Part shown: positions 25,714-52,378 of the stretch, piece by piece
How the letters are laid out: every line of letters begins with the position of its first letter
Numbering within the stretch: position 1 is the stretch's first letter
Origin: Klebsiella phage phiKp_32
DNA length: 64,000 nucleotides
Sequence record: LC768500.1
Direction: 5' to 3' (one strand)
Made by a program: the position numbers and the translations under genes
The notes under the pieces: model-generated
Seen by the model: only the letters and a program-made list of their open reading frames with translations
Database searches by the model: none
Told to the model about the DNA's origin: nothing

Positions 25714-26979
25714 ATGAGTAAATTGTTTCTGGATCTGCTGGCTCGTCAGGGCAACGAAAACCTGGAAATCGAACTGGGTAATGGCGATACCGCTGTAATC
25801 GTTCCTGAGTCGGCCGAAGAAATCGCTGAAATGGCTGCTGAAAACGTTGTTGCCGAAACTTCCGAAGCGCTGGAAGAACACGCCGGCGACGTTGAAGACC
25901 TGTGCGACAAAGTTGAAGAACTGGAAGAGCAGGTTGAAGAACTGCAAGAAGTCGTTGAAGGCGCCGAAGCCCTCCTGCAACCGGGTACCCAGTGGAACCC
26001 TGCTGCGTTCGCTCTGCTGTATGCTCGCGGTGAAAAACTGAACGCCAAAATGAGCGATGCTGTCGTTCCGGTTATGGGCGCGGAATCTCTGGCTGACGCG
26101 ACTACTGCCGAACTGTCTGCTCGTGAAGGCCTGGAAGCTATGGGCGCAACCGTGAAAAAATGGGGTTCTCAGGCGATCGCGTTCATCAAGAAAATCTGGG
26201 ATAGCCTGATCTCCTTCATCAAAGGCCTGTTCTCCAAAGCCACCGCGGTTAAGAACAAAGCGAAAGCGGTTGCCGCTCGCCTGGAAAAAACCAAAAAACT
26301 GAAAGAAACCATCAAGCTGGGCAAATGGAACGCGTTTGTCGGTGTTGGCGAAGGTCAGCCTAAATCTGCAACCGGTCTGTCCACTCTGATCGGCGCTGCC
26401 GGTAAAGTGGTAGCGGGTTCTGAAGCTCTGCTGTCTTCTCCGGGTAACGCCGCTGCGCTGGCAGGTCCGGTTAAAGAACTGAGCTCCGCTGCAGCTGGCC
26501 TGGACTCTGTTTTCGGCCCGGCTAAGAAAGCTGGCGGCGACAAAGCCGTTGCTGCTCACCAGTGGCGTGGTCTGACCATCGCGGTCGGTTATTACGCTGG
26601 TAAAGTCGAAACCTTCGAAGATGTTGCGAAAGCCGCTAAAGCCATCCGCATCTCCTGGAAAGTTTCCGGCGGTAAAACCTCTGGCGAACACAAAGTCACC
26701 GACGGCAAAGACGCGCTGAAAAAATACATCAGCGACGCCAACGCTCTGGTTGACTCCATCGCTTCTTCCAAAGTTGAAGCGCAGTATGGCGCGGCTAAAC
26801 GCGATCGCATCATCGGCCTGCTGAAAGCAGCTGATACCAAAGACGGCGAAGACGTGGGTAAAGCAGTTAACGCAGTGAAAGCTGCTCAGACCGCTCTGTC
26901 CTCTGTAACGACTTCCGCGACCCGTCTGGGCCTGGCTATCGCTAACGGCGAACTCGACTACGTACGTGCTTGCCTGTAA
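25714..26979 (+). CDS. Ala/Glu-rich abundant protein with acidic N-terminal propeptide-like region (head or inner-body protein candidate)
   Basis: Strongest host-optimal codon bias in the window together with 39519..41705. The N-terminal 90 aa carry repeated S/A-x-E motifs (SAEE, AAE, SEALEE, GAE), the cleavage pattern of phiKZ-type prohead proteases. The codon bias creates a long artefactual antisense ORF (25669..26691). Confidence 0.5.
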   Translation: MSKLFLDLLARQGNENLEIELGNGDTAVIVPESAEEIAEMAAENVVAETSEALEEHAGDVEDLCDKVEELEEQVEELQEVVEGAEALLQPGTQWNPAAFALLYARGEKLNAKMSDAVVPVMGAESLADATTAELSAREGLEAMGATVKKWGSQAIAFIKKIWDSLISFIKGLFSKATAVKNKAKAVAARLEKTKKLKETIKLGKWNAFVGVGEGQPKSATGLSTLIGAAGKVVAGSEALLSSPGNAAALAGPVKELSSAAAGLDSVFGPAKKAGGDKAVAAHQWRGLTIAVGYYAGKVETFEDVAKAAKAIRISWKVSGGKTSGEHKVTDGKDALKKYISDANALVDSIASSKVEAQYGAAKRDRIIGLLKAADTKDGEDVGKAVNAVKAAQTALSSVTTSATRLGLAIANGELDYVRACL

Positions 26980-36232: not shown

Positions 36233-37264
36233 ATGGTTTATCGGGAGCATTTAATGGGATCAAGTTTAAGGCGAGATTTAAAAGAATTAGAGGAACATCC
36301 TCATTTTAAGGGGTTCTATAAGTGTCTTAGAGATGGGAGATTATGGCTCAATCCAGATAGCAACAATTACGTTATTTTGGAGAAGGATGGGAAAACTAAG
36401 AAGTTTTTTCTTTCTAAGAGAACGTCCAAAGGAGCCAGAGAGTATTTGAGGGTAACTATTTACGATAGCGGGAAAGAGCAGAACTCCTATCTTTATCACG
36501 TTATCAATGCCGAAACATTTTTAATAAAGCCCGACATACCCGATAGAAAACTGGAAGTTAATCACAAGAATTCTGACAGATGGGACGGGAGAGTTGACAA
36601 TCTTGAATATGTGACATCGCAAGAAAACATACGCCACGCTGTTGAGGCTGGTTCTTTTAATACGTTATCGGGATTTATTATAGATTTAACTACTGGAGAT
36701 AAATATTTCTTTTTCAGTTATTCGAGATTAATAACCGACTGGGGTTTTGACAGGTCCTCGGCAGAAAGCTATTTAAAAACCGATATGTCAGTCCCGCTTC
36801 TGTTTAAATGGGGGATAGAATTTGTCGGAGGTAAAAAATGCACTCTGACCAATGAGGATGTCGGTAAGTTCAGGAGAACACCAAAGTCCCCGATAAAGAT
36901 TTTAAATAAATCAACTGGTGAGGTGTCATGGGCCGTTAGCATGAAGGATTGTGCAAAAAAGATAGACTGTTCTCCTAGATTAATACATAAATTATTCTTT
37001 GGAAAAAATTCCTTCAGGTTAAAACAATGGGAAATTTCTTTTATAAATAATTACGAGGATTTTTTAAAATATCATGAGTATAAATCCACCATCGGCAAGG
37101 TCGGGGGTGTGCCAAAACCTATTTTCTTTATTCATGATAAAACCGGGGAGAAACTATCTTTTAAAACCATTACTGAAGCCTCAAAATACTTTAAGATTAC
37201 AAGAGGGAATCTTTCATTCTTAAGAAAACGCGGAAGTAAATTTTTAGGTTATAGTATAATCTGA
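36233..37264 (+). mobile_element. free-standing HNH homing endonuclease gene island (low GC)
   Basis: About 36% GC against about 47% in the flanks. Bracketed by terminators at 36114 and 37266. Intergenic insertion between a moron gene and a convergent helicase gene. Confidence 0.5.
36254..37264 (+). CDS. HNH homing endonuclease
   Basis: EVNHKNSDRWDGRVDNLEYVTSQENIRHA matches the HNH_3 signature (NHKNG.k.DNR.eNLe..T..EN). ATG at 36254 with a GGGAG RBS. Confidence 0.75.
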   Translation: MGSSLRRDLKELEEHPHFKGFYKCLRDGRLWLNPDSNNYVILEKDGKTKKFFLSKRTSKGAREYLRVTIYDSGKEQNSYLYHVINAETFLIKPDIPDRKLEVNHKNSDRWDGRVDNLEYVTSQENIRHAVEAGSFNTLSGFIIDLTTGDKYFFFSYSRLITDWGFDRSSAESYLKTDMSVPLLFKWGIEFVGGKKCTLTNEDVGKFRRTPKSPIKILNKSTGEVSWAVSMKDCAKKIDCSPRLIHKLFFGKNSFRLKQWEISFINNYEDFLKYHEYKSTIGKVGGVPKPIFFIHDKTGEKLSFKTITEASKYFKITRGNLSFLRKRGSKFLGYSII

Positions 37265-39430: not shown

Positions 39431-39518
39431 TCCCTGATGCATAAGGGGTTAAGTACATTTTATGTACTAGTGCCGTAAACAAATATTTGTTTAAAGCTTT
39501 GAATAAAGGAAATTATCG

Positions 39519-41705
39519 ATGAAGCGTACAATTAACGTCCGCAAAGGCTCCACCGCTGTAAAACCCCTGAACCTCGCGATGAGCGACATGTTTAGTCAGG
39601 GCGGCTTTAAATCTTTTACTGGTGTTGAAAACCTGGATACTGCGACCGACCAGTTCAATGCCATGTTTGCTGGCACCGAGTCACTGGCTAACGGTATTAG
39701 CCCAGAGTCTTCCAAACTGCTCAGCAACCTGACCAACTCTCAGCGTTTCGCGACCATCTCCAGCATCGCGTCGATGCAAAATGCGTTCCCGACCATTGAT
39801 CGTCGCCTGGCTGACTTCGCCGGTACCGAAGGTTTCTCAATGGCGCAGTTTGCTGGTGAGTCCGCTAAAGTTAAAGGCGTGAACATCACTCTGAACGCCC
39901 TGTCTCACCGTCAGACTGACGCTGCTGAAGCGCTATTCACAACCGTCACCATCCCGTACGCTGATGAGTACCTGGAGTTCTCCGTGCGTACTGCCGGCCT
40001 GGGTCGTTACATCTACGGTGCTGCTGCTGGCGAACGTGCTTCTGAGCTGGTACCGGTAATGAGCCTGATCCGCAAAGGTAAAGCCTTCATGGCTGATACC
40101 CTGCGCATGTATCCGGTTTATCCGACCGACTCGGCTGACCCGAACCGTAAATACTTCATGGCTGAGTCTGTATCTGCTGCTACCGAAGCCACTTACGACA
40201 GCGCCGATCCGCTGAACCGTCAAGCTCACAAGACCCAATACCTGAAAGTTCCGGTATCCGTACCGAACCTGGTTGGTCTGTCTGAAGCCCCGGGTCAGAA
40301 CCCGTTCGAAACTTCTGATGAAGTTGAATCCAACTCCATCCAGATGACCAACGTCGCACTGACCGCCAACGTCGGCGCTTCCGGCTCTGCTACCGCAGTT
40401 GTACTGCGTATGCCGACCGTGAACATGTCTCAGGCGCATTTCGGTATCGCTGCAATGGGTGCTTCTTCTGACGATCGTCAGATGGACTTCCAGGTACAGG
40501 GTCTGCCGGCGTCTGCACTGTTCAACATCGGTAGCGATACTGTTACCACCGCACTGGATGCACTGAAAGCGAATGGCGCTCAGCCGTTCTTCTCTCTGAG
40601 CATCACCGGTACTTACCAGCGTCAGACCAATACCCTGAAAATCCAGGGCGGTTCTTTCGAACTGGAGTACATCAAAGATGCGGCTGGCAACAAACATCTG
40701 CCGACCACTTCCAGCGCAACGATCAAAGCTCTGTTCGGCCTGTTCAATGATGGCGAAATCGCCGGTGTTGAACTGCGTTACAACCACACCAACATCAACC
40801 GCGTGAACTTCGGTTACCGTGTTGAAGTGTTTGACGCACGTAAAACTCTGACCACTCATCGTCAGACTCCGATCTCTGTTCGCTACCCGGTCAGCAAAGA
40901 AGATACCAATGAGGAATCTCTGAGCTACGCGATCGATCAGATGGCGATCATCCTGAACGCACAGACCACCGCAAACGCGTTTACCAAAGCTGAAGAGCAC
41001 GTTGATTACGTGACCTCCATCAACGGTTCGGCAATCGTGGGTAACGAGCAGGCGTCCAACGTCCTGGCCGGTATGCACTATGCTAACGCTGCGGCGATCA
41101 ACCGTACCCTGAAACTGGCTGACATCGTGTCTACCCAGGATAGCGTCGGTGTGGTCGACAACATCTCTGCGGCACTGTGCAACACCCTGAGCGAAATGGC
41201 AGCAGCGCTGGCCACTAACTCCGGTCTGGCTGCTATTGCCGAATACACCCGTGAAAAACTGAAATGGCAGGTTGTTGCCCATCAGAACATGGGTCGTTAC
41301 CTGATGCGTTCTGGCGACGCTCGTACTATGGGTGCGTATACCGACTTCGCGGTTGAACTGACTAACGTCGAAACCATGATCGGTAAATTCTACCTGGTAC
41401 CGCAGTCCGAAACCGACGGCAACACCATCGACCCGCTGGGTGGCATGGGTGTCTGCGTTGATAAAGAGCACGTTGTTGTTCAGGGTGACGTAACCCGTAC
41501 TGATCGTCAGTTCGGTATCCTGATGACCATGCCGATCTTCCAACACCACTCCGTGTGTCCGATCGTCGGCGTACTGACCGTTGAAGACGCGGTACTGGCT
41601 CTGAACGACGAAGGCCTGATCGACGCTCTGGCTAAACAGCGCGTTGTGGTTAACGGCGTTGTACAGTCTAAAGCCGGCACTGTAGACGACGGTAAGCTGC
41701 CGTAA
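39519..41705 (+). CDS. major capsid protein (phiKZ-type, 728 aa, with N-terminal propeptide)
   Basis: Most host-codon-optimised gene in the window: near-exclusive CTG/CGT/GGT/GCT/AAA/GAA use and a 538-aa artefactual antisense ORF. Size matches the 730-750-aa capsid proteins of phiKZ-like jumbo phages. The N-terminal region has candidate protease sites (AAGE, ASE). A strong terminator follows. Confidence 0.6.
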   Translation: MKRTINVRKGSTAVKPLNLAMSDMFSQGGFKSFTGVENLDTATDQFNAMFAGTESLANGISPESSKLLSNLTNSQRFATISSIASMQNAFPTIDRRLADFAGTEGFSMAQFAGESAKVKGVNITLNALSHRQTDAAEALFTTVTIPYADEYLEFSVRTAGLGRYIYGAAAGERASELVPVMSLIRKGKAFMADTLRMYPVYPTDSADPNRKYFMAESVSAATEATYDSADPLNRQAHKTQYLKVPVSVPNLVGLSEAPGQNPFETSDEVESNSIQMTNVALTANVGASGSATAVVLRMPTVNMSQAHFGIAAMGASSDDRQMDFQVQGLPASALFNIGSDTVTTALDALKANGAQPFFSLSITGTYQRQTNTLKIQGGSFELEYIKDAAGNKHLPTTSSATIKALFGLFNDGEIAGVELRYNHTNINRVNFGYRVEVFDARKTLTTHRQTPISVRYPVSKEDTNEESLSYAIDQMAIILNAQTTANAFTKAEEHVDYVTSINGSAIVGNEQASNVLAGMHYANAAAINRTLKLADIVSTQDSVGVVDNISAALCNTLSEMAAALATNSGLAAIAEYTREKLKWQVVAHQNMGRYLMRSGDARTMGAYTDFAVELTNVETMIGKFYLVPQSETDGNTIDPLGGMGVCVDKEHVVVQGDVTRTDRQFGILMTMPIFQHHSVCPIVGVLTVEDAVLALNDEGLIDALAKQRVVVNGVVQSKAGTVDDGKLP

Positions 41706-41728: not shown

Positions 41729-41790
41729 TAACCCCCTACCCCGTTAAGGGTAGGGGGTTATACTTCGTCTTCTTAAATTTTTTAAGGACT
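41729..41790 (+). terminator. rho-independent terminator
   Basis: 13-bp stem TAACCCCCTACCC-CGTTAA-GGGTAGGGGGTTA, followed by a T-rich tract. Confidence 0.7.
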
Positions 41791-41884
41791 ATATTATCTC
41801 TGGGTAAAGGGTTGGTATAAGGGACCGCGCATCCCATACCAGATGAAGCTCTAGTCTAAAAATAAACCTTAAGGAAATTAACAA

Positions 41885-47087: not shown

Positions 47088-47723
47088 ATGAATCGTCCAA
47101 TTTTTAAAATTAGTCAGCACGCGCAGTTGTCGATCCCGGCCCTCATCGATGTTACAGAAAATGAAGCGGAATGCTCGTCACTTGTTTACGGCCTCCATCC
47201 TTCCATGACCGGGGTATTCTCTGAACGCCAGAAGGATTCAATGGCAGAGAGTCTTTACCTAATGGGTCAGTACGCCGAAATCATTCCCAGGAATAAGCCG
47301 GAGTGTACGATTGATTATCATCCCATCACTAACGAGCATTACCTTAAATCGTTTAAACATTATTACGAAGCATGGGTTGCTTTGGGTAGAGATGAAGTGG
47401 TGATGCAGGGAGCCACTGTTAGGGTTTCGTCGTTTTTATTATTAAGGACTATGTTCAATGGGGTCATAGGAATTCTACCTTATCTCGACCCCAAAGGACA
47501 TCGGATGCAAGCAAAGGAATACGCTAAATTAGACGATTTGGTTAAACTGACCTACGGCGTGCCCGCTGGGTCATTCTCGGCGACCCCCGATTACCAGGTT
47601 GTTCCTAAAATAGAGGTGCGGGAACAGATCGTGATGAGCTTTACTGACAAATACGGTAACGTCATCACCGTCACCGGAATCGATAGAGAAAAGATGATCG
47701 AACAGATAGAAAAATTAAAGTAA
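47088..47723 (+). CDS. hypothetical protein
   Basis: ORF with an AAAGGAA RBS. Confidence 0.45.
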   Translation: MNRPIFKISQHAQLSIPALIDVTENEAECSSLVYGLHPSMTGVFSERQKDSMAESLYLMGQYAEIIPRNKPECTIDYHPITNEHYLKSFKHYYEAWVALGRDEVVMQGATVRVSSFLLLRTMFNGVIGILPYLDPKGHRMQAKEYAKLDDLVKLTYGVPAGSFSATPDYQVVPKIEVREQIVMSFTDKYGNVITVTGIDREKMIEQIEKLK

Positions 47724-47730
47724 TCGTCTT

Positions 47731-47785
47731 CCCTACCACTCCTTAACTGGGGTGGTAGGGAGTAAGAAAGCTTTAATTTTTTAAC
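47731..47785 (+). terminator. rho-independent terminator
   Basis: 12-bp stem CCCTACCACTCC-TTAACT-GGGGTGGTAGGG, followed by TTTAATTTTTT. Confidence 0.65.
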
Positions 47786-47865
47786 ATGAAGATTTTTATA
47801 AGTCGATATCATTCAGGTGTATAAACAACAAGTATTTTAATTCTTATTCACTAAAGAGGTCCAAA

Positions 47866-48438
47866 ATGGAAATTCGTAAAGATATGATCAATGAAATCGC
47901 CGCTCGTATCATCTCTGGTTGCAACGACGTGGAAGCCAGTGTCCGCGAAAAGCTGCTGCGTAATTTGGTTAATGGTGAGATCTGGCAGTTCGAGCTCAAT
48001 GAAACTGAGCAAGCGGAACTGATCGCGATCGTAAGCAAAGAGTTCGGTATTTCCGATCTGGTCTACGTCGAACCGCAGAAAAACATTTCTGAAGAAGATG
48101 TCGCCAAAGTCGCTGCCAGTGTTAACGGGCATGTCGAACACAAATATCTGAATCTGCGAAATGCGATGGCAGTCGGCGCAGTACTCGGTGCTGGTGCGGC
48201 CATCTTAAAAGAAGGTGCGAACGCAATTAATGCCGGTGCTGGTGTGGTCGGCGCTGCTGTTTCTTACGGCGTGGGTTATCTGGCTGACAAGAAACATATC
48301 GGTATGGGTAATCAGTACGCTGATGTCGCGGCAGGCATTGTTGCCGGTGGCGTTATCGGTGGCGGCGCAGTATTTGGCGCGGGCTTTGTCGCCAAACGTT
48401 TCTTCAGCGATGAAGAAGTTGAAGTTGTTGCAGAGTAA
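47866..48438 (+). CDS. glycine-zipper membrane protein, paralog 1 (soluble N-domain plus Gly/Ala-rich C-terminal helices)
   Basis: C-terminal 90 aa are GxxxG/AxxxG repeats (AVGAVLGAGAAIL...GAGVVGAAVSYGVGYL...AAGIVAGGVIGGGAVFGAGFV). Host-optimal codons. RBS is AAAGAGG. Confidence 0.5.
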   Translation: MEIRKDMINEIAARIISGCNDVEASVREKLLRNLVNGEIWQFELNETEQAELIAIVSKEFGISDLVYVEPQKNISEEDVAKVAASVNGHVEHKYLNLRNAMAVGAVLGAGAAILKEGANAINAGAGVVGAAVSYGVGYLADKKHIGMGNQYADVAAGIVAGGVIGGGAVFGAGFVAKRFFSDEEVEVVAE

Positions 48439-48501
48439 TAAACGCATCTGAAATATCCGATGCATCTTAAATTAAACTATCAATAGTAAGGAAATACGAT
48501 C

Positions 48502-48894
48502 ATGAAAAAAGAAAACATTGAACTGACTGGCACTGAACTCGACGAAGCTAAAGCGATGCTGGCTGTTGATGCAGAAACTTCTCTGTTCGACGATATCTGT
48601 GAAAAACTCGGTGGCTACGTAGCTACCGACAAACAGAAAAGCCACGTGAAAGCCGCAGTGATCGGTGGTGTTATCGGCACCGCTCTGAGCATGGCGAGCA
48701 AACCATCTGTCGGCACGCTGATCGGTGGCGTGGTTGGTACCGCAGGTGGCGCTTATGTGGGTAGTCGTATCGCTGATGATCTGAGCAATCAGTTCATTGA
48801 CAAACTGCTCACCGCTGAAATTGGCTTCGTGTGTAGCGCTATCGGCGCATCCATCGGCGGGGCATTAACCCCGAGCAAAGTCGAAGCGGACTAA
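48502..48894 (+). CDS. glycine-zipper membrane protein, paralog 2
   Basis: Gly-zipper repeats: VIGGVIGTALSMA...LIGGVVGTAGGAYVGS...IGFVCSAIGASIGGAL. Confidence 0.5.
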   Translation: MKKENIELTGTELDEAKAMLAVDAETSLFDDICEKLGGYVATDKQKSHVKAAVIGGVIGTALSMASKPSVGTLIGGVVGTAGGAYVGSRIADDLSNQFIDKLLTAEIGFVCSAIGASIGGALTPSKVEAD

Positions 48895-48962
48895 ATCATC
48901 CAGTTCGTTCCACTACCGTTAAATTTTAGGCAACTCAACATCAAAACGTAAGAGGTAATATC

Positions 48963-49358
48963 ATGGATATGGCAAACAAACCTGCAGTTAACAAAGCTGC
49001 CTTGTCAGAAGAAGAAATTCTGAAAATGCTGGCTGGTCACAAATCCACCGATGCTAACTATCGGGTTGGTCGCATTGCTGGTGTGCTGGGCGCAGTTGTC
49101 GCCGGTGCGCATCGGACCGTCACCAATGGGGTTAAACCATCTACGGTGGTAGGTACAGTGGTAGGTGGATTGGTTGGATATAAAACGGGTAAAATGGCAG
49201 ACGGTTTCAGCGGGCTGACCGGAAGTCATTCACCGATTGCAGACGTCGGTGCATTCACAGCAGGGTACGGCGTGGCGCTGGGAATGAGCGCCCTGGCGGG
49301 TACGTTTGATCAGTACATCACACCGCTGTACGAATCAGAAGAAGAAACCGAAGAATAA
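48963..49358 (+). CDS. glycine-zipper membrane protein, paralog 3
   Basis: Gly-zipper repeats: IAGVLGAVVAGA...VVGTVVGGLVGYKTG...GAFTAGYGVALGMSALAG. Acidic C-terminus EEETEE. Confidence 0.5.
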   Translation: MDMANKPAVNKAALSEEEILKMLAGHKSTDANYRVGRIAGVLGAVVAGAHRTVTNGVKPSTVVGTVVGGLVGYKTGKMADGFSGLTGSHSPIADVGAFTAGYGVALGMSALAGTFDQYITPLYESEEETEE

Positions 49359-49364
49359 GAAAGT

Positions 49365-49417
49365 TAACTCCTCTACCCGTAAGGGTAGAGGAGTTACTTA
49401 ATTACTTATTTTTTTTA
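49365..49417. terminator. bidirectional terminator between convergent genes
   Basis: 14-bp stem TAACTCCTCTACCC-GTAA-GGGTAGAGGAGTTA. T tracts on both strands. Confidence 0.65.
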
Positions 49418-52378
49418 CTCTGGAAGGGTGTCATCAACTTGGAAGTCGTCTTTCTTATTGCTGTCTTCTTCTGTCTCTGTTTCTTCCTCGGTTTGGTTTT
49501 CTTCTTTGGAAGTATCTGTTCCCGTCTCTTCTTCCTCGGTCGTTCCACCTTCCCCAGGCAAATCTTCCTCTATTGAGAAATCGTCGTCTGTCTGAGTTCC
49601 CTCTTCAGGGGTACCCTCATCAGCAGGTTGGGCGCCGAACTCATTCGCCGGAGGCTGTTCCGCAGGCATAATCTTTTCCAAACGTTTAGCCAGGCGATCG
49701 GTCTCTTTATTCCAGACCTTCATGAACTGTTCTAAGAACATTCCACTGTTGTCTACGTACTGAGATATGTTGTGGATTAACGAATAGATCCCACCTTCTT
49801 TACCCTTGTTACCGATAAGATCGAACGGCATAGGGAGGTTGAATCGATCATAGAGCTCGATCAGATAAGTGCTGCGAATAATGGATTTAGCTTTCTCAAT
49901 ATCCAGACCGCCGTTAGCGTCAACCTTGTTCATGATCATTTCAATCAGGCCCGACGTACCTGACATTTCAACCCACGAGTTTACAAACTGATTGACCGTA
50001 TCGATTTTATCTTTCAGTTTGGTTACTGATTCCTGAGTAGCCGGAGTCGGTAAGGTCACGGTGAGGTTGTTGATAAAGTCAGCCAGGATAACTTCAACGA
50101 TGTGCTCGTTAGTTCCCTCTATCTCTTCGCCGTTATCAGGTTTCCACAACGATTTGTTCTCGTTAATGGTGTCGACCAAACGATTCAACATAACCTGGTT
50201 AACCAACATATCCTTACGTTCGATCTCAGCAACAAAGTCACCCAATACCTTCTGCCAGATCAATGTTTGGTTGCGGAGCATTTCCTGCTCGGCCAATGCT
50301 TCGACCTGGAAGTTGGTTCCTTCTTCTTTATCGTCCAACCAAGTACGTTGGAGCTTAAAGGTGGAGGCGATGTTGTTGAGGAGGTTCTGTCTGGAGGTTT
50401 CGTCAATAGCTTTGAAGTTACCGCGTTCAACCGGTTCCAGAGTTATCTTGGGCCCGACCATCCACGGGTTACCGTTACTATTAACCTCAACGATCAGGGA
50501 TTGGGTCTTCATTGCTTCAACAATGTCGGGTACTGAAACAGTGCCCGAGTTTACTACGTTGTGAAGCGTTGGGTTCACCCTGAAGAACTGCGCCCTGGCC
50601 GTAGCAATCGTGCCATCCGGATCAACGTCATCTTCTTCCAGATCAACCACTAAACGCTGACGAGTTTGAGCTTGATCCAAGTTAGCCAGAATATCAGCAG
50701 TATCTAACGCTGCCAAACGTCCGATATGGAGTTTAGCCTGGTTAGTTAAAGAAGAGCCAATACCAAAGCTATTATAGTCAAACGCGACGTAGGTAAAGTA
50801 TTCGGCCGGAATGTAAAGCACCCGAACACCCTGCTGCTTGAAAGAACGAGCCAGGAAGATCTTCAGGTTAGCTTCAACCAATTCGACAGAAATATTTTTC
50901 CCGCTCACGCCAGAAGCAATTGCCTGGATAAGGGACTTCTCTATTTGATCTTTCGATAACAGGGCGAATTCTGACATATCGAAGTCACAATCAGCACCTT
51001 GCTGAACTTTCTTCAAATTAGCGATAAGTGCGTTAGTCCCACCCGTTTTATTGGGGGTATCGATTTTATCTTTCTGTCCCTTAGAGGACTGATAGAAGTT
51101 AAAGTCCCTCGTGCTTTTTAAGAACTCCCCATTTGACGGATCGAGTAGGGCAAAACCACCGATCAATTTAGTTCGGTCGCCTTCCATATGAACAGGAATA
51201 AACGCTTCACTTGGGATATGATACCGCAAAGGTATTCCATAAACAGAAGTGTCGTAAACCCCAGGACTCCGAATACTAATGGTCTGCCGATGCGGATAGC
51301 TTCGATGCGGATAAATTTCGTTTTGAAGGACTTCTAGCTGGCTCTCTGGCAAAACCTGAGTTTTAGTATCAGCGTTAGGGGTCCCGTTCTTACGTTTAGC
51401 CTTAGAGTCGTCAGGCTCTTTATTCGACTTCTTAGGATCTTGTTTCTTATCCTTGGTTGCCGCGGCCTCTTCTTCCTCTCCCTCGCCTTTTTTCTCTAGC
51501 CGAGATTTAATAAGGGAAGCAAGATCTTCCGTCCCACCAATGTCGTTAACGATCTTCTTCGTTAAAACCTGATTTACGGAACGAAGCGCTAACACCGCTG
51601 GGTTATCGGTTAGTGTGATGCCAAAACCTTCTCCTTCGTCATTCTCGATTAATTCGAACTCAGTAGAGGTGTCTGGCGTGGTGTGGCTAAACAAAGCCTC
51701 TAACCCATGAACCACGTTATTGAGCTGCTTAGGTCCCCTCACCAATCCTTTGTTGATGGCGAGAAACTTACCGTCGACATTTTTAAATTGCTTCTCAATC
51801 TCTGGTTTTATCTGAGCGTTAATGTAACTTTCGTTACCTGTCACTCCGTCTTCTCCAAACTGCTGACCGTTGATAAGGTGATCCAGCGCAGGTCTAGAGA
51901 TGTTCAAAAGCACGTAGGATCCTGTACCGAATAACCCGTCTTTGATGAACTCCGGTAACAGCTTCTCGATTTTATAGTCGCTGGTATAGTAGGTTTCCGT
52001 CTTACGGAGCAACTCTTCATGCAGCTTAGTATTTTTAAATTGAGACCGCAAAGTATCGTGAGTAAGGATCCTTTCCTGTAATCCGTTCGGGTAGAGGAGA
52101 AGCGTCTTCCAGATTAATTCCGCCCGCGAAACATAAGGTGTGATTTCCCTTAAGTCAGTTGCCGCATTGATATTGCTGGCAATGATATCGCTGATCTTTT
52201 TTAATTTGGAAGGTTGGACTTTACGTTCTTTCTCATCCGTATTTCTGGTATGATCTCTCTCGTCCCGAACGAGGTTCCGAACGACGCTTTTTAACGAGGG
52301 GCTGATATTGTTTAAATTACCCCTGAGTTTGGTTTGATCGAGGTAATCATATCCTCGGGTTGAACGCGTTCTATTCAT
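49415..52378 (-). CDS. large virion-type protein (987 aa) with disordered K/E-rich internal segment and strongly acidic C-terminal tail; portal protein candidate
   Basis: Long ORF. C-terminal 70 aa are D/E/T-rich (EEGTQTDDDFSIEEDLPGEGGTTEEEETGTDTSKEENQTEEETETEEDSNKKDDFQVDD). No NTPase motifs. Confidence 0.4.
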   Translation of the reverse strand: MNRTRSTRGYDYLDQTKLRGNLNNISPSLKSVVRNLVRDERDHTRNTDEKERKVQPSKLKKISDIIASNINAATDLREITPYVSRAELIWKTLLLYPNGLQERILTHDTLRSQFKNTKLHEELLRKTETYYTSDYKIEKLLPEFIKDGLFGTGSYVLLNISRPALDHLINGQQFGEDGVTGNESYINAQIKPEIEKQFKNVDGKFLAINKGLVRGPKQLNNVVHGLEALFSHTTPDTSTEFELIENDEGEGFGITLTDNPAVLALRSVNQVLTKKIVNDIGGTEDLASLIKSRLEKKGEGEEEEAAATKDKKQDPKKSNKEPDDSKAKRKNGTPNADTKTQVLPESQLEVLQNEIYPHRSYPHRQTISIRSPGVYDTSVYGIPLRYHIPSEAFIPVHMEGDRTKLIGGFALLDPSNGEFLKSTRDFNFYQSSKGQKDKIDTPNKTGGTNALIANLKKVQQGADCDFDMSEFALLSKDQIEKSLIQAIASGVSGKNISVELVEANLKIFLARSFKQQGVRVLYIPAEYFTYVAFDYNSFGIGSSLTNQAKLHIGRLAALDTADILANLDQAQTRQRLVVDLEEDDVDPDGTIATARAQFFRVNPTLHNVVNSGTVSVPDIVEAMKTQSLIVEVNSNGNPWMVGPKITLEPVERGNFKAIDETSRQNLLNNIASTFKLQRTWLDDKEEGTNFQVEALAEQEMLRNQTLIWQKVLGDFVAEIERKDMLVNQVMLNRLVDTINENKSLWKPDNGEEIEGTNEHIVEVILADFINNLTVTLPTPATQESVTKLKDKIDTVNQFVNSWVEMSGTSGLIEMIMNKVDANGGLDIEKAKSIIRSTYLIELYDRFNLPMPFDLIGNKGKEGGIYSLIHNISQYVDNSGMFLEQFMKVWNKETDRLAKRLEKIMPAEQPPANEFGAQPADEGTPEEGTQTDDDFSIEEDLPGEGGTTEEEETGTDTSKEENQTEEETETEEDSNKKDDFQVDDTLPE

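Follow-up and report, generated by a model that had tools for sequence, protein, structure and literature searches.

A conserved cassette of paralogous glycine-zipper proteins, probably an early operon, in Klebsiella jumbo phage phiKp_32 and its relatives

What would a nucleus-forming jumbo phage do with three small glycine-rich proteins encoded side by side between its head genes and its portal gene? The question is raised by Klebsiella phage phiKp_32 (record LC768500.1), of which a stretch of 64,000 nt, termed the window herein, was examined. Three consecutive genes, termed A, B, and C, are located there (Table 1), and their counterparts in phage Miami all carry the annotation 'hypothetical'. 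A preliminary description of this DNA had reported open reading frames (ORFs) of 190, 130, and 131 aa, and these sizes and positions were reproduced; a strong Shine-Dalgarno site precedes each gene. It had regarded the products as paralogous membrane proteins, probably late or carried in the virion. Our results suggest instead an abundant early operon, and we tentatively favor, with a probability of roughly 45%, the reading that A, B, and C form an early-made, membrane-inserting glycine-zipper oligomer acting either on the inner membrane of the host or on the early-infection (EPI) vesicle.

The window had ~95% nucleotide identity with phages KPN8 and Miami, identifying phiKp_32 as a Miami-like Klebsiella jumbo phage. 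Miami appears in the list of chimallin-encoding phages, and the near-identical KPN8 genome contains a nuclear shell protein gene (phrog_4795, E = 1.6e-100) and also encodes a tubulin-like protein. The earlier assignment to the nucleus-forming jumbo phages was thus correct, the phage being a chimallin-encoding relative of Miami.

Pairwise BLASTP among A, B, and C gave no significant match. Comparison of subfamily profiles that had been built with more distant members (hhalign) connected the C-family with the A-family at 95% probability (E = 2.8e-8, 112 columns) and with the B-family at 88% probability (E = 3.5e-6), while the direct match of B to A was weak. The paralogy of the trio was therefore borne out by profile-profile comparison, not by pairwise BLASTP. 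The architecture is common to all three proteins: a basic residue leads into helix 1, which a short polar loop (KPS in B and C) joins to helix 2 (GxxxG...Y..G...D, ending in Y..G..[ILM]AD), and a linker, helix 3, and an acidic tail follow. The conserved module spans ~85 to 90 residues behind an acidic and variable N-terminal part. An Arg before helix 1 and an Asp after helix 2 are invariant, and in C the family-invariant residues are R37, G64, G68, Y73, G76, D80, and G101. Taken together, the profiles and the architecture support A, B, and C as distant paralogues with a common C-terminal three-helix Gly/Ala-rich module. Their N-termini had been called short and unrelated, which was overstated: A has an extra domain of ~75 aa of its own, but ~20 residues ahead of helix 1 align between A and C, and the N-termini are therefore not wholly unrelated.

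The glycine-zipper character of the proteins, already noted in the preliminary description, was evident from motif density. A, B, and C were the top three of 55 window genes for the motif [GAS]xxxGxxx[GAST], with 2.1, 6.2, and 5.3 occurrences per 100 aa, respectively, against an average of 0.39 in the other window proteins, and their module helices contain at least 4 Gly and at least 10 G/A/S/T per 19-residue window. In a heuristic Gly-zipper scan of the genome, A and B were the only small ORFs to meet the criteria; C has the same architecture, yet fell below the thresholds of the scan. The only other protein flagged in the genome was KPN8_217, a 2268-aa 'putative endolysin' with two Gly/Ala-rich hydrophobic zipper segments, which is probably a tail-lysin/tape-measure-like virion protein.

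Comparison with known families in Pfam, PHROGs, and NCBIfam gave sub-threshold matches only, in agreement with the earlier statement that no function has been described for such a trio. Neither A nor C matched any Pfam family. B was compared with the Pfam glycine-zipper clan (Gly-zipper_YMGG PF13441, Gly-zipper_Omp PF13488, and Rick_17kDa_Anti PF05433) and scored below the gathering threshold throughout (23.3/28.9, 21.5/25, and 14.4/24.2 bits), as it did against the three-transmembrane glycine-zipper family GlsB/YeaQ/YmgE (PF04226; 10.3 versus 25.3 bits, E = 0.85) and the NCBIfam YiaD glycine zipper (20 bits versus a cut-off of 175). A PDB profile search gave only sub-threshold matches, to the prion-protein zipper, and PADLOC had no match for A, B, or C. 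Glycine-zipper segments (YMGG/Omp, YiaD, and prion protein) account for all of the below-threshold Pfam, NCBIfam, and PDB matches. B matches ~40 residues of the Pfam and NCBIfam glycine-zipper membrane domains and is like them in its helix 1-loop-helix 2 hairpin with repeated GxxxG; in contrast to YiaD/OmpA-type lipoproteins, the proteins described here have no lipoprotein signal peptide or OmpA domain, and they have acidic N-termini, a third helix, and a phage early-gene setting. No paper was found that connects glycine zippers with jumbo phages, and none on EL gp82, a relative of the trio described below.

How widely this family occurs was not apparent from standard searches. When A, B, and C were used as tblastn queries on 50,697 phage records, only Miami-like phages were recovered, and a word-indexed search of 5.8 billion proteins, with B and then with a 13-sequence family alignment, recovered only close relatives; its candidate list was swamped by Gly-rich words. 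The family was uncovered via synteny: a slot that lies downstream of the phrog_13213 gene, and in most cases faces the portal gene convergently, encodes the same architecture in a range of phages. This slot is held by RisingSun gp87, EL gp82, and OBP gp131, by genes of Vibrio phages phiKT1028 (two copies) and Aphrodite1, Aeromonas phages AhC3_1 (two copies) and D9, Serratia phage Yubaba, and Erwinia phage AH04. No such gene occupies it in phiKZ, Goslar, Ea35-70, DT01, or FishSpeaker; phiKZ gp125, gp126, and gp130 and Goslar gp037 were considered as members in the syntenic slot and rejected. Of 1.84 billion representative proteins scanned in full with HMMER, just 13 were hits, all of 112 to 195 aa and of the same architecture, which sort into A-like, B-like, C-like, and EL-like types. 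Conversely, when a hidden Markov model (HMM) from other phages was run on 385 ORF segments in the window, C, A, and B were all among the four best.

Metagenomic orthologues of A (P0012) and B (P0013) are each 44% identical to the phiKp_32 proteins. Two metagenomic relatives (~40 to 45% identity) keep the A-B-C order beside the portal gene, and others have two or three copies; most phages have one or two copies, versus the trio found here and in those two relatives. The family, with between one and three copies per phage in synteny, is thus confined to the Miami/EL/RisingSun/OBP/Vibrio/Aeromonas clade of chimalliviruses. EL gp82, RisingSun gp87, OBP gp131, and Miami gp041-043 have in common the three-helix module, the genomic slot, and an upstream promoter-like element, and the orthologues are all annotated 'hypothetical protein'. 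A previously unrecognized protein family, missed by BLAST and word-indexed searches, is hereby defined, and this stands whatever its function proves to be.

The regions flanking the cassette pointed to its organization. Strong terminators had been placed on each side of it, and terminator-like hairpins were confirmed at both positions, with z-scores of -5.4 and -6.0 against shuffled controls. A like hairpin followed by a T-run lies upstream of the cassette in L015 to L018, RisingSun, EL, phiKT1028, and Aphrodite1. The downstream hairpin, common to the cassette and the convergent portal gene, carries a terminator annotation in Miami and has an equivalent in L015 to L018. Rfam gave chance-level matches on the 3' hairpin region only (E = 0.28 and 0.84, far under gathering) and none on the conserved block upstream of A. 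In that block, ~60 nt following the upstream hairpin are kept in every phage that has the family, despite protein identities of 25 to 45%, around an element core of (C/T)CTATAT(T/A)A(C/T)C-N3-GTGTA. There is no hairpin between A and B or between B and C and no comparable conservation ahead of B or C, and internal promoters at those two sites were rejected for lack of conservation. Because the conserved block stands only before A and intergenic hairpins are missing, the cassette is, as read from its sequence, a single operon comprising a terminator, a putative promoter, A-B-C, and a bidirectional terminator.

The same core is found upstream of the operon after the head gene that contains an RNA-polymerase subunit, and the EL record annotates the site at its own RNA-polymerase operon as a 'putative phage promoter'. 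A position weight matrix (PWM) derived from other phages only was used to scan both strands of the window and the rest of KPN8 (~254 kb). Eleven sites reached at least 14 bits, where 1.1 were expected, and 11/11 were on the coding strand; the site before A (24.4 bits) was the second best. Other sites precede chimallin, the operon for a subunit of the non-virion RNA polymerase (nvRNAP), a helix-turn-helix (HTH) regulator, and small ORFs, and no site was detected upstream of the head, internal-head, or portal genes. Upstream of chimallin, the same element architecture is present in the divergent phages KPN8, RisingSun, EL, and phiKT1028. As a class, the AT-rich elements approximate CTATATTAYC-N3-GTGTA, preceded by TTTCAG or a T-run, and one also lies ahead of an SLT transglycosylase gene.

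Early promoters of the virion RNA polymerase (vRNAP) have been described as highly conserved AT-rich motifs of ~10 nt that can be found bioinformatically, unlike middle and late ones (PMC7598289). In Miami-like phages and their relatives, the AT-rich class detected here probably marks early vRNAP promoters. In phiKZ the nvRNAP genes are early, gp123 being one of them, and chimallin has been described as early-expressed. Upstream of the capsid gene, the TATG-type element CATTTTATGT is found instead, which matches the phiKZ late promoter consensus T-3ATG+1 (PMC7598289). The regions upstream of A, B, and C contain no TATG, and the capsid-type CATTTTATGT is absent there. With an element class common to chimallin and the nvRNAP operon, and with the capsid TATG-type element absent, the cassette is most likely, by analogy, an abundant early operon rather than late virion cargo, and the earlier designation of its products as late or virion proteins was not supported. 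Genes from the nvRNAP subunit to C would then make up an early island set between the late head and portal genes. Whatever the function of the cassette, a genome-wide early-promoter motif is now available for Miami-like and related phages that separates this island from the late head genes.

The capsid upstream region contains, in addition, a perfect palindrome, AAACAAATATTTGTTT. CATTTTATGT and the palindrome are also present in RisingSun and EL, and phiKT1028 retains the palindrome core ACAAATATTTGTTT followed by TTTATGT. The pair may represent a late promoter plus an operator or 5'-UTR element.

Codon usage was examined with the codon adaptation index (CAI) on the E. coli scale and with composition-controlled z-scores. 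B had a CAI of 0.58, A of 0.44, and C of 0.36, compared to 0.67 for the capsid gene, 0.62 for chimallin, and 0.69 for the internal head protein; the corresponding codon-bias z-scores were 5.3, 3.9, and 1.9, with 16 for the capsid gene. Among genes and ORFs of 100 aa or more, B ranks fourth in CAI over the ~254 kb of genome covered, and its codon adaptation approaches that of chimallin. These values suggest that the products are probably abundant, as had been expected. It had also been claimed that the trio uses host-preferred codons as strongly as the capsid gene, of which the raised bias stands; it is uneven, however, and below that of the capsid gene.

These data bear directly on the possibility that A, B, and C are carried in the virion as ejection or channel proteins, being made in large amounts, loaded into the head near the portal, and expelled via the tail to insert into the host membrane, where they would form a DNA conduit or seed the EPI vesicle. 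Their place among head genes and convergent with the portal gene would fit, as would the fact that the other high-CAI genes of the window encode the most abundant virion proteins. Marginal hydrophobicity and acidic charge would suit proteins that are first soluble and then insert, and the PHROG matches of B fell on Gly-zipper segments of tape-measure proteins (E = 0.06 to 0.09). Those segments, like the ones in tail lysins, are similar Gly/Ala-rich hydrophobic stretches, but they belong to very large late virion proteins, whereas A, B, and C are small, free-standing, and behind an early-type promoter. That promoter, of the chimallin/nvRNAP class, and the lack of TATG in the three upstream regions argue against packaging. 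Moreover, RisingSun gp87 was not among 31 proteins in crude-lysate mass spectrometry, a shallow data set that missed the portal too, and OBP gp131 is 'hypothetical' whereas its neighbors OBP_132 and OBP_133 carry the annotation (putative) virion structural protein; the paper on ZPAH34 reports no mass spectrometry. No prohead-protease S/A/G-x-E site is conserved before the module, the candidates in A, B, and C not being kept in orthologues. The EL gene does not adjoin the portal gene, and the virion already has a 2268-aa lysin/tape-measure-like protein with zipper segments of its own. The ejection role raised earlier is disfavored by the promoter and the lysate data, and we consider it unlikely.

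A similarly graded view was taken of superinfection exclusion or immunity, in which inner-membrane proteins, made early and in abundance, would keep later-arriving phages from inserting the tail tip or bringing in DNA. T4 Imm and Sp, small early exclusion proteins with hydrophobic helices, provide the likeness. The promoter class, the small size with several hydrophobic helices, and a copy number that differs between phages from one to three would all be in keeping with such a role, as would phage-specific C-terminal tails that the paralogues of one phage have in common. The paralogues in L018 end alike in ...AEVVNQFGL and ...EVINQFAL, and those in Aeromonas phage AhC3_1 in ...PELPAV and ...DLPTV. 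Tails shared within one phage hint at a common partner, and this pattern suggests either a shared binding partner or concerted tail evolution. The family, however, keeps a fixed locus across a deep clade in which the proteins are at most 25% identical, and so looks core rather than accessory. No sequence or profile similarity to T4 Imm/Sp was found, no homology to superinfection-exclusion families was detected in Pfam, PHROG, NCBIfam, or PADLOC, and its hydrophobicity is weaker than that of typical integral exclusion proteins. An exclusion function is therefore held to be unlikely. The acidic tails of A, B, and C were also considered as mimics of the PhuZ C-terminal tail, and this was rejected, as the PhuZ tail here (...GNGGDDSGMSY) is dissimilar.

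Under the favored reading, which includes the early-infection vesicle role already raised in the preliminary description, the injected virion RNA polymerase would transcribe the operon early and the products would accumulate to high levels. They would reach the lipid bilayer post-translationally from the cytoplasmic side, and the helices would pack within it by their small-residue faces into homo- or hetero-oligomers. The conserved basic residue that precedes helix 1 would share an interface with the Asp that follows helix 2, giving a helix 1-helix 2 hairpin. The target bilayer would be that of the host inner membrane or the EPI vesicle, and the likely action would be to condition, permeabilize, or remodel that membrane early in infection. 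A membrane-inserting zipper oligomer is the most economical proposal because Gly-rich helices are unlikely to be stable as isolated soluble helices; richness in Gly and small residues disfavors stable soluble helices through low helix propensity.

Several observations weigh against this reading. The A, B, and C segments are marginally hydrophobic, with Kyte-Doolittle values over 19 residues (KD19) of 1.0 to 1.9 and a summed Hessa apparent free energy of +2 to +10 kcal/mol, the proteins are net acidic (A -10, B -6, C -4), and they have no signal peptide or clear positive-inside pattern. For these reasons constitutive insertion into a membrane is not a given, and insertion as such is a plausible proposal. 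The N-termini are polar or acidic (MEIRKDMINE in A, MKKENIELTG in B, and MDMANKPAVN in C), with no hydrophobic signal sequence and no Cys lipobox, and the C-termini are acidic (SDEEVEVVAE, KVEAD, and ESEEETEE, respectively). In C, codon bias shows no significant increase (z = 1.9). Early timing would follow from analogy with phiKZ and from co-occurrence of the element with chimallin, and some jumbo-phage genes carry early as well as late promoters (PMC7598289).

The same physical properties would suit a soluble helical bundle or homo-oligomer with a stoichiometric early role, for example as a chimallin-shell accessory or an assembly chaperone. Insertion free energy is positive and net charge acidic, the genes match chimallin in promoter class and high CAI, and the phylogenetic range of the family equals that of the clade's chimallin type. 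An AlphaFold2 (AF2) model of C from a 16-sequence alignment (mean pLDDT 72.9, core 76 to 91; helices 35-55, 59-86, and 91-113) packs the three helices as a monomer; the model of B, on a shallow alignment, reached a pLDDT of 43 and was not used. A Foldseek search of the structure model against the PDB gave nothing significant, with de novo three-helix bundles among the weak matches. Set against this are the Gly- and small-residue-rich helices, which disfavor stability in solution, and the sequence-level resemblances, which are all to membrane glycine-zipper segments. We regard a non-membrane role as unlikely.

Against BFVD, the models closest to C by Foldseek were EL gp82 and RisingSun gp87 (probabilities 1.00 and 0.96), and the nearest neighbors outside the family were three-helix phage holins of class I or LydA type, at a TM-score of 0.3 to 0.57 and non-significant E-values (0.26 to 2.4). 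Three-helix zipper proteins that oligomerize in the inner membrane to form or regulate a lethal hole would be holins or antiholins setting lysis timing. Glycine zippers line the pinholin hole, and no holin is labelled in the KPN8 annotation tables that cover 42 to 236 kb of the 257-kb genome. A, B, and C are like pinholins and the holins with three transmembrane domains (class I and LydA superfamily III) in being small three-helix phage proteins of weak BFVD similarity, but they differ in having acidic rather than basic tails, helices of weak hydrophobicity (KD19 of at most 1.9, positive Hessa sums), an early-type promoter, and no linked lysin gene. The neighbors are a 211-aa ORF and the portal gene, the SLT gene and the giant lysin being elsewhere, and a lethal protein under a strong early promoter with high codon bias would kill the cell too soon. 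The holin-like role suggested earlier is thus disfavored, and we judge it very improbable.

Within membrane action, a narrower proposal places A, B, and C on the lipid EPI vesicle from the cytoplasmic side, co-produced with chimallin. Zipper oligomers in the vesicle bilayer would open a route for RNA and protein traffic, or would rupture the vesicle, so that the genome is handed to the nascent shell. How the membrane-bound early-infection vesicle is shaped, used, and exited is an open question according to the Goslar structure preprint and recent reviews. We regard this specific proposal as quite unlikely; if true, it would represent a clade-specific solution to a step whose mechanism is unexplained in all nucleus-forming phages. 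More generally, the cassette provides a testable candidate in one large clade, comprising small, probably abundant, probably early zipper proteins of membrane type that are apparently co-regulated with the shell protein.

On the plus strand, the major head protein gene is followed by a homologue of EL gp79, a 556-aa RNA-polymerase subunit (phrog_2943), a 797-aa phrog_13213 protein, a 211-aa orphan, and the cassette. Identification of the portal gene came from its phiKZ match, which lies under the gene with the annotation PHIKZ129; in some records the homologue bears the label 'portal protein'. Coordinates of these and other features are given in Table 1.

Table 1. Positions of the cassette, its parts, and further features. 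Positions are those of the window unless another sequence is named.
Feature	Position	Strand	Details
Upstream terminator-like hairpin	47729-47762	+	Stem 47729-47742/47749-47762 (14 bp), 6-nt loop; T-rich run 47772-47782; -28.1 kcal/mol, z -5.35, 0/200 shuffles as stable
Conserved non-coding block	47772-47830	+	25-nt core GTCGATATCATTCAGGTGTATAAAC at 47802-47826; putative early (vRNAP-type) promoter
Gene A	47866-48438	+	190 aa; Miami gp041
Gene A, parts	48151-48393	+	Three-helix glycine-zipper module, residues ~96-176; preceded by acidic N-terminal domain of ~95 aa; acidic tail FFSDEEVEVVAE
Gene B	48502-48894	+	130 aa; Miami gp042
Gene B, parts	48640-48864	+	Glycine-zipper module, residues ~47-121
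Gene C	48963-49358	+	131 aa; Miami gp043
Gene C, parts	49065-49301	+	Module, residues 35-113; acidic tail ESEEETEE
Downstream bidirectional terminator-like hairpin	49365-49396 (feature to 49416)	both	14-bp stem, GTAA loop, T-runs on both strands, z -6.0
Portal gene	49415-52378	-	987 aa; convergent with cassette
Major head protein (capsid) gene	39519-41705	+	Upstream of cassette
TATG-type element	39456-39465		CATTTTATGT, upstream of capsid gene
Palindrome	39477-39492		AAACAAATATTTGTTT, upstream of capsid gene
AT-rich element sites	41787-41811, 47802-47826		Window
AT-rich element sites	L024 27090, 32313, 9940; L021 26115, 13147; L023 2837, 8018, 45540; L022 44963, 10829
Orphan ORF	47088-47723	+	211 aa; between phrog_13213 gene and cassette
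HNH endonuclease gene	36233-37264	+	phrog_59; CCTATATTAC ahead (36208)
Internal head protein gene	25714-26979	+	phrog_5750
Antisense open frame	39933-41549	-	538 aa; within major head gene
KPN8_217	L023 27955-34761	-	2268 aa
Family paralogues in L018	4255-5913
Family paralogues in AhC3_1	L009 7863-9063

The 211-aa orphan has a low CAI (0.21) and no match in any profile library, and its position is kept in the metagenomic relative L015 by a 209-aa gene. The HNH endonuclease gene has the lowest GC content (0.36) and the lowest CAI (0.16) in the window, with CCTATATTAC ahead of it, and looks like a mobile homing-endonuclease insertion with a fragment of an early-type promoter. At the other extreme, the internal head protein has the top CAI of the whole genome (0.69), above the major head protein, which would fit a dominant inner-body protein present in very many copies. 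The 538-aa frame antisense within the major head gene is almost certainly no gene and a by-product of codon bias on the sense strand.

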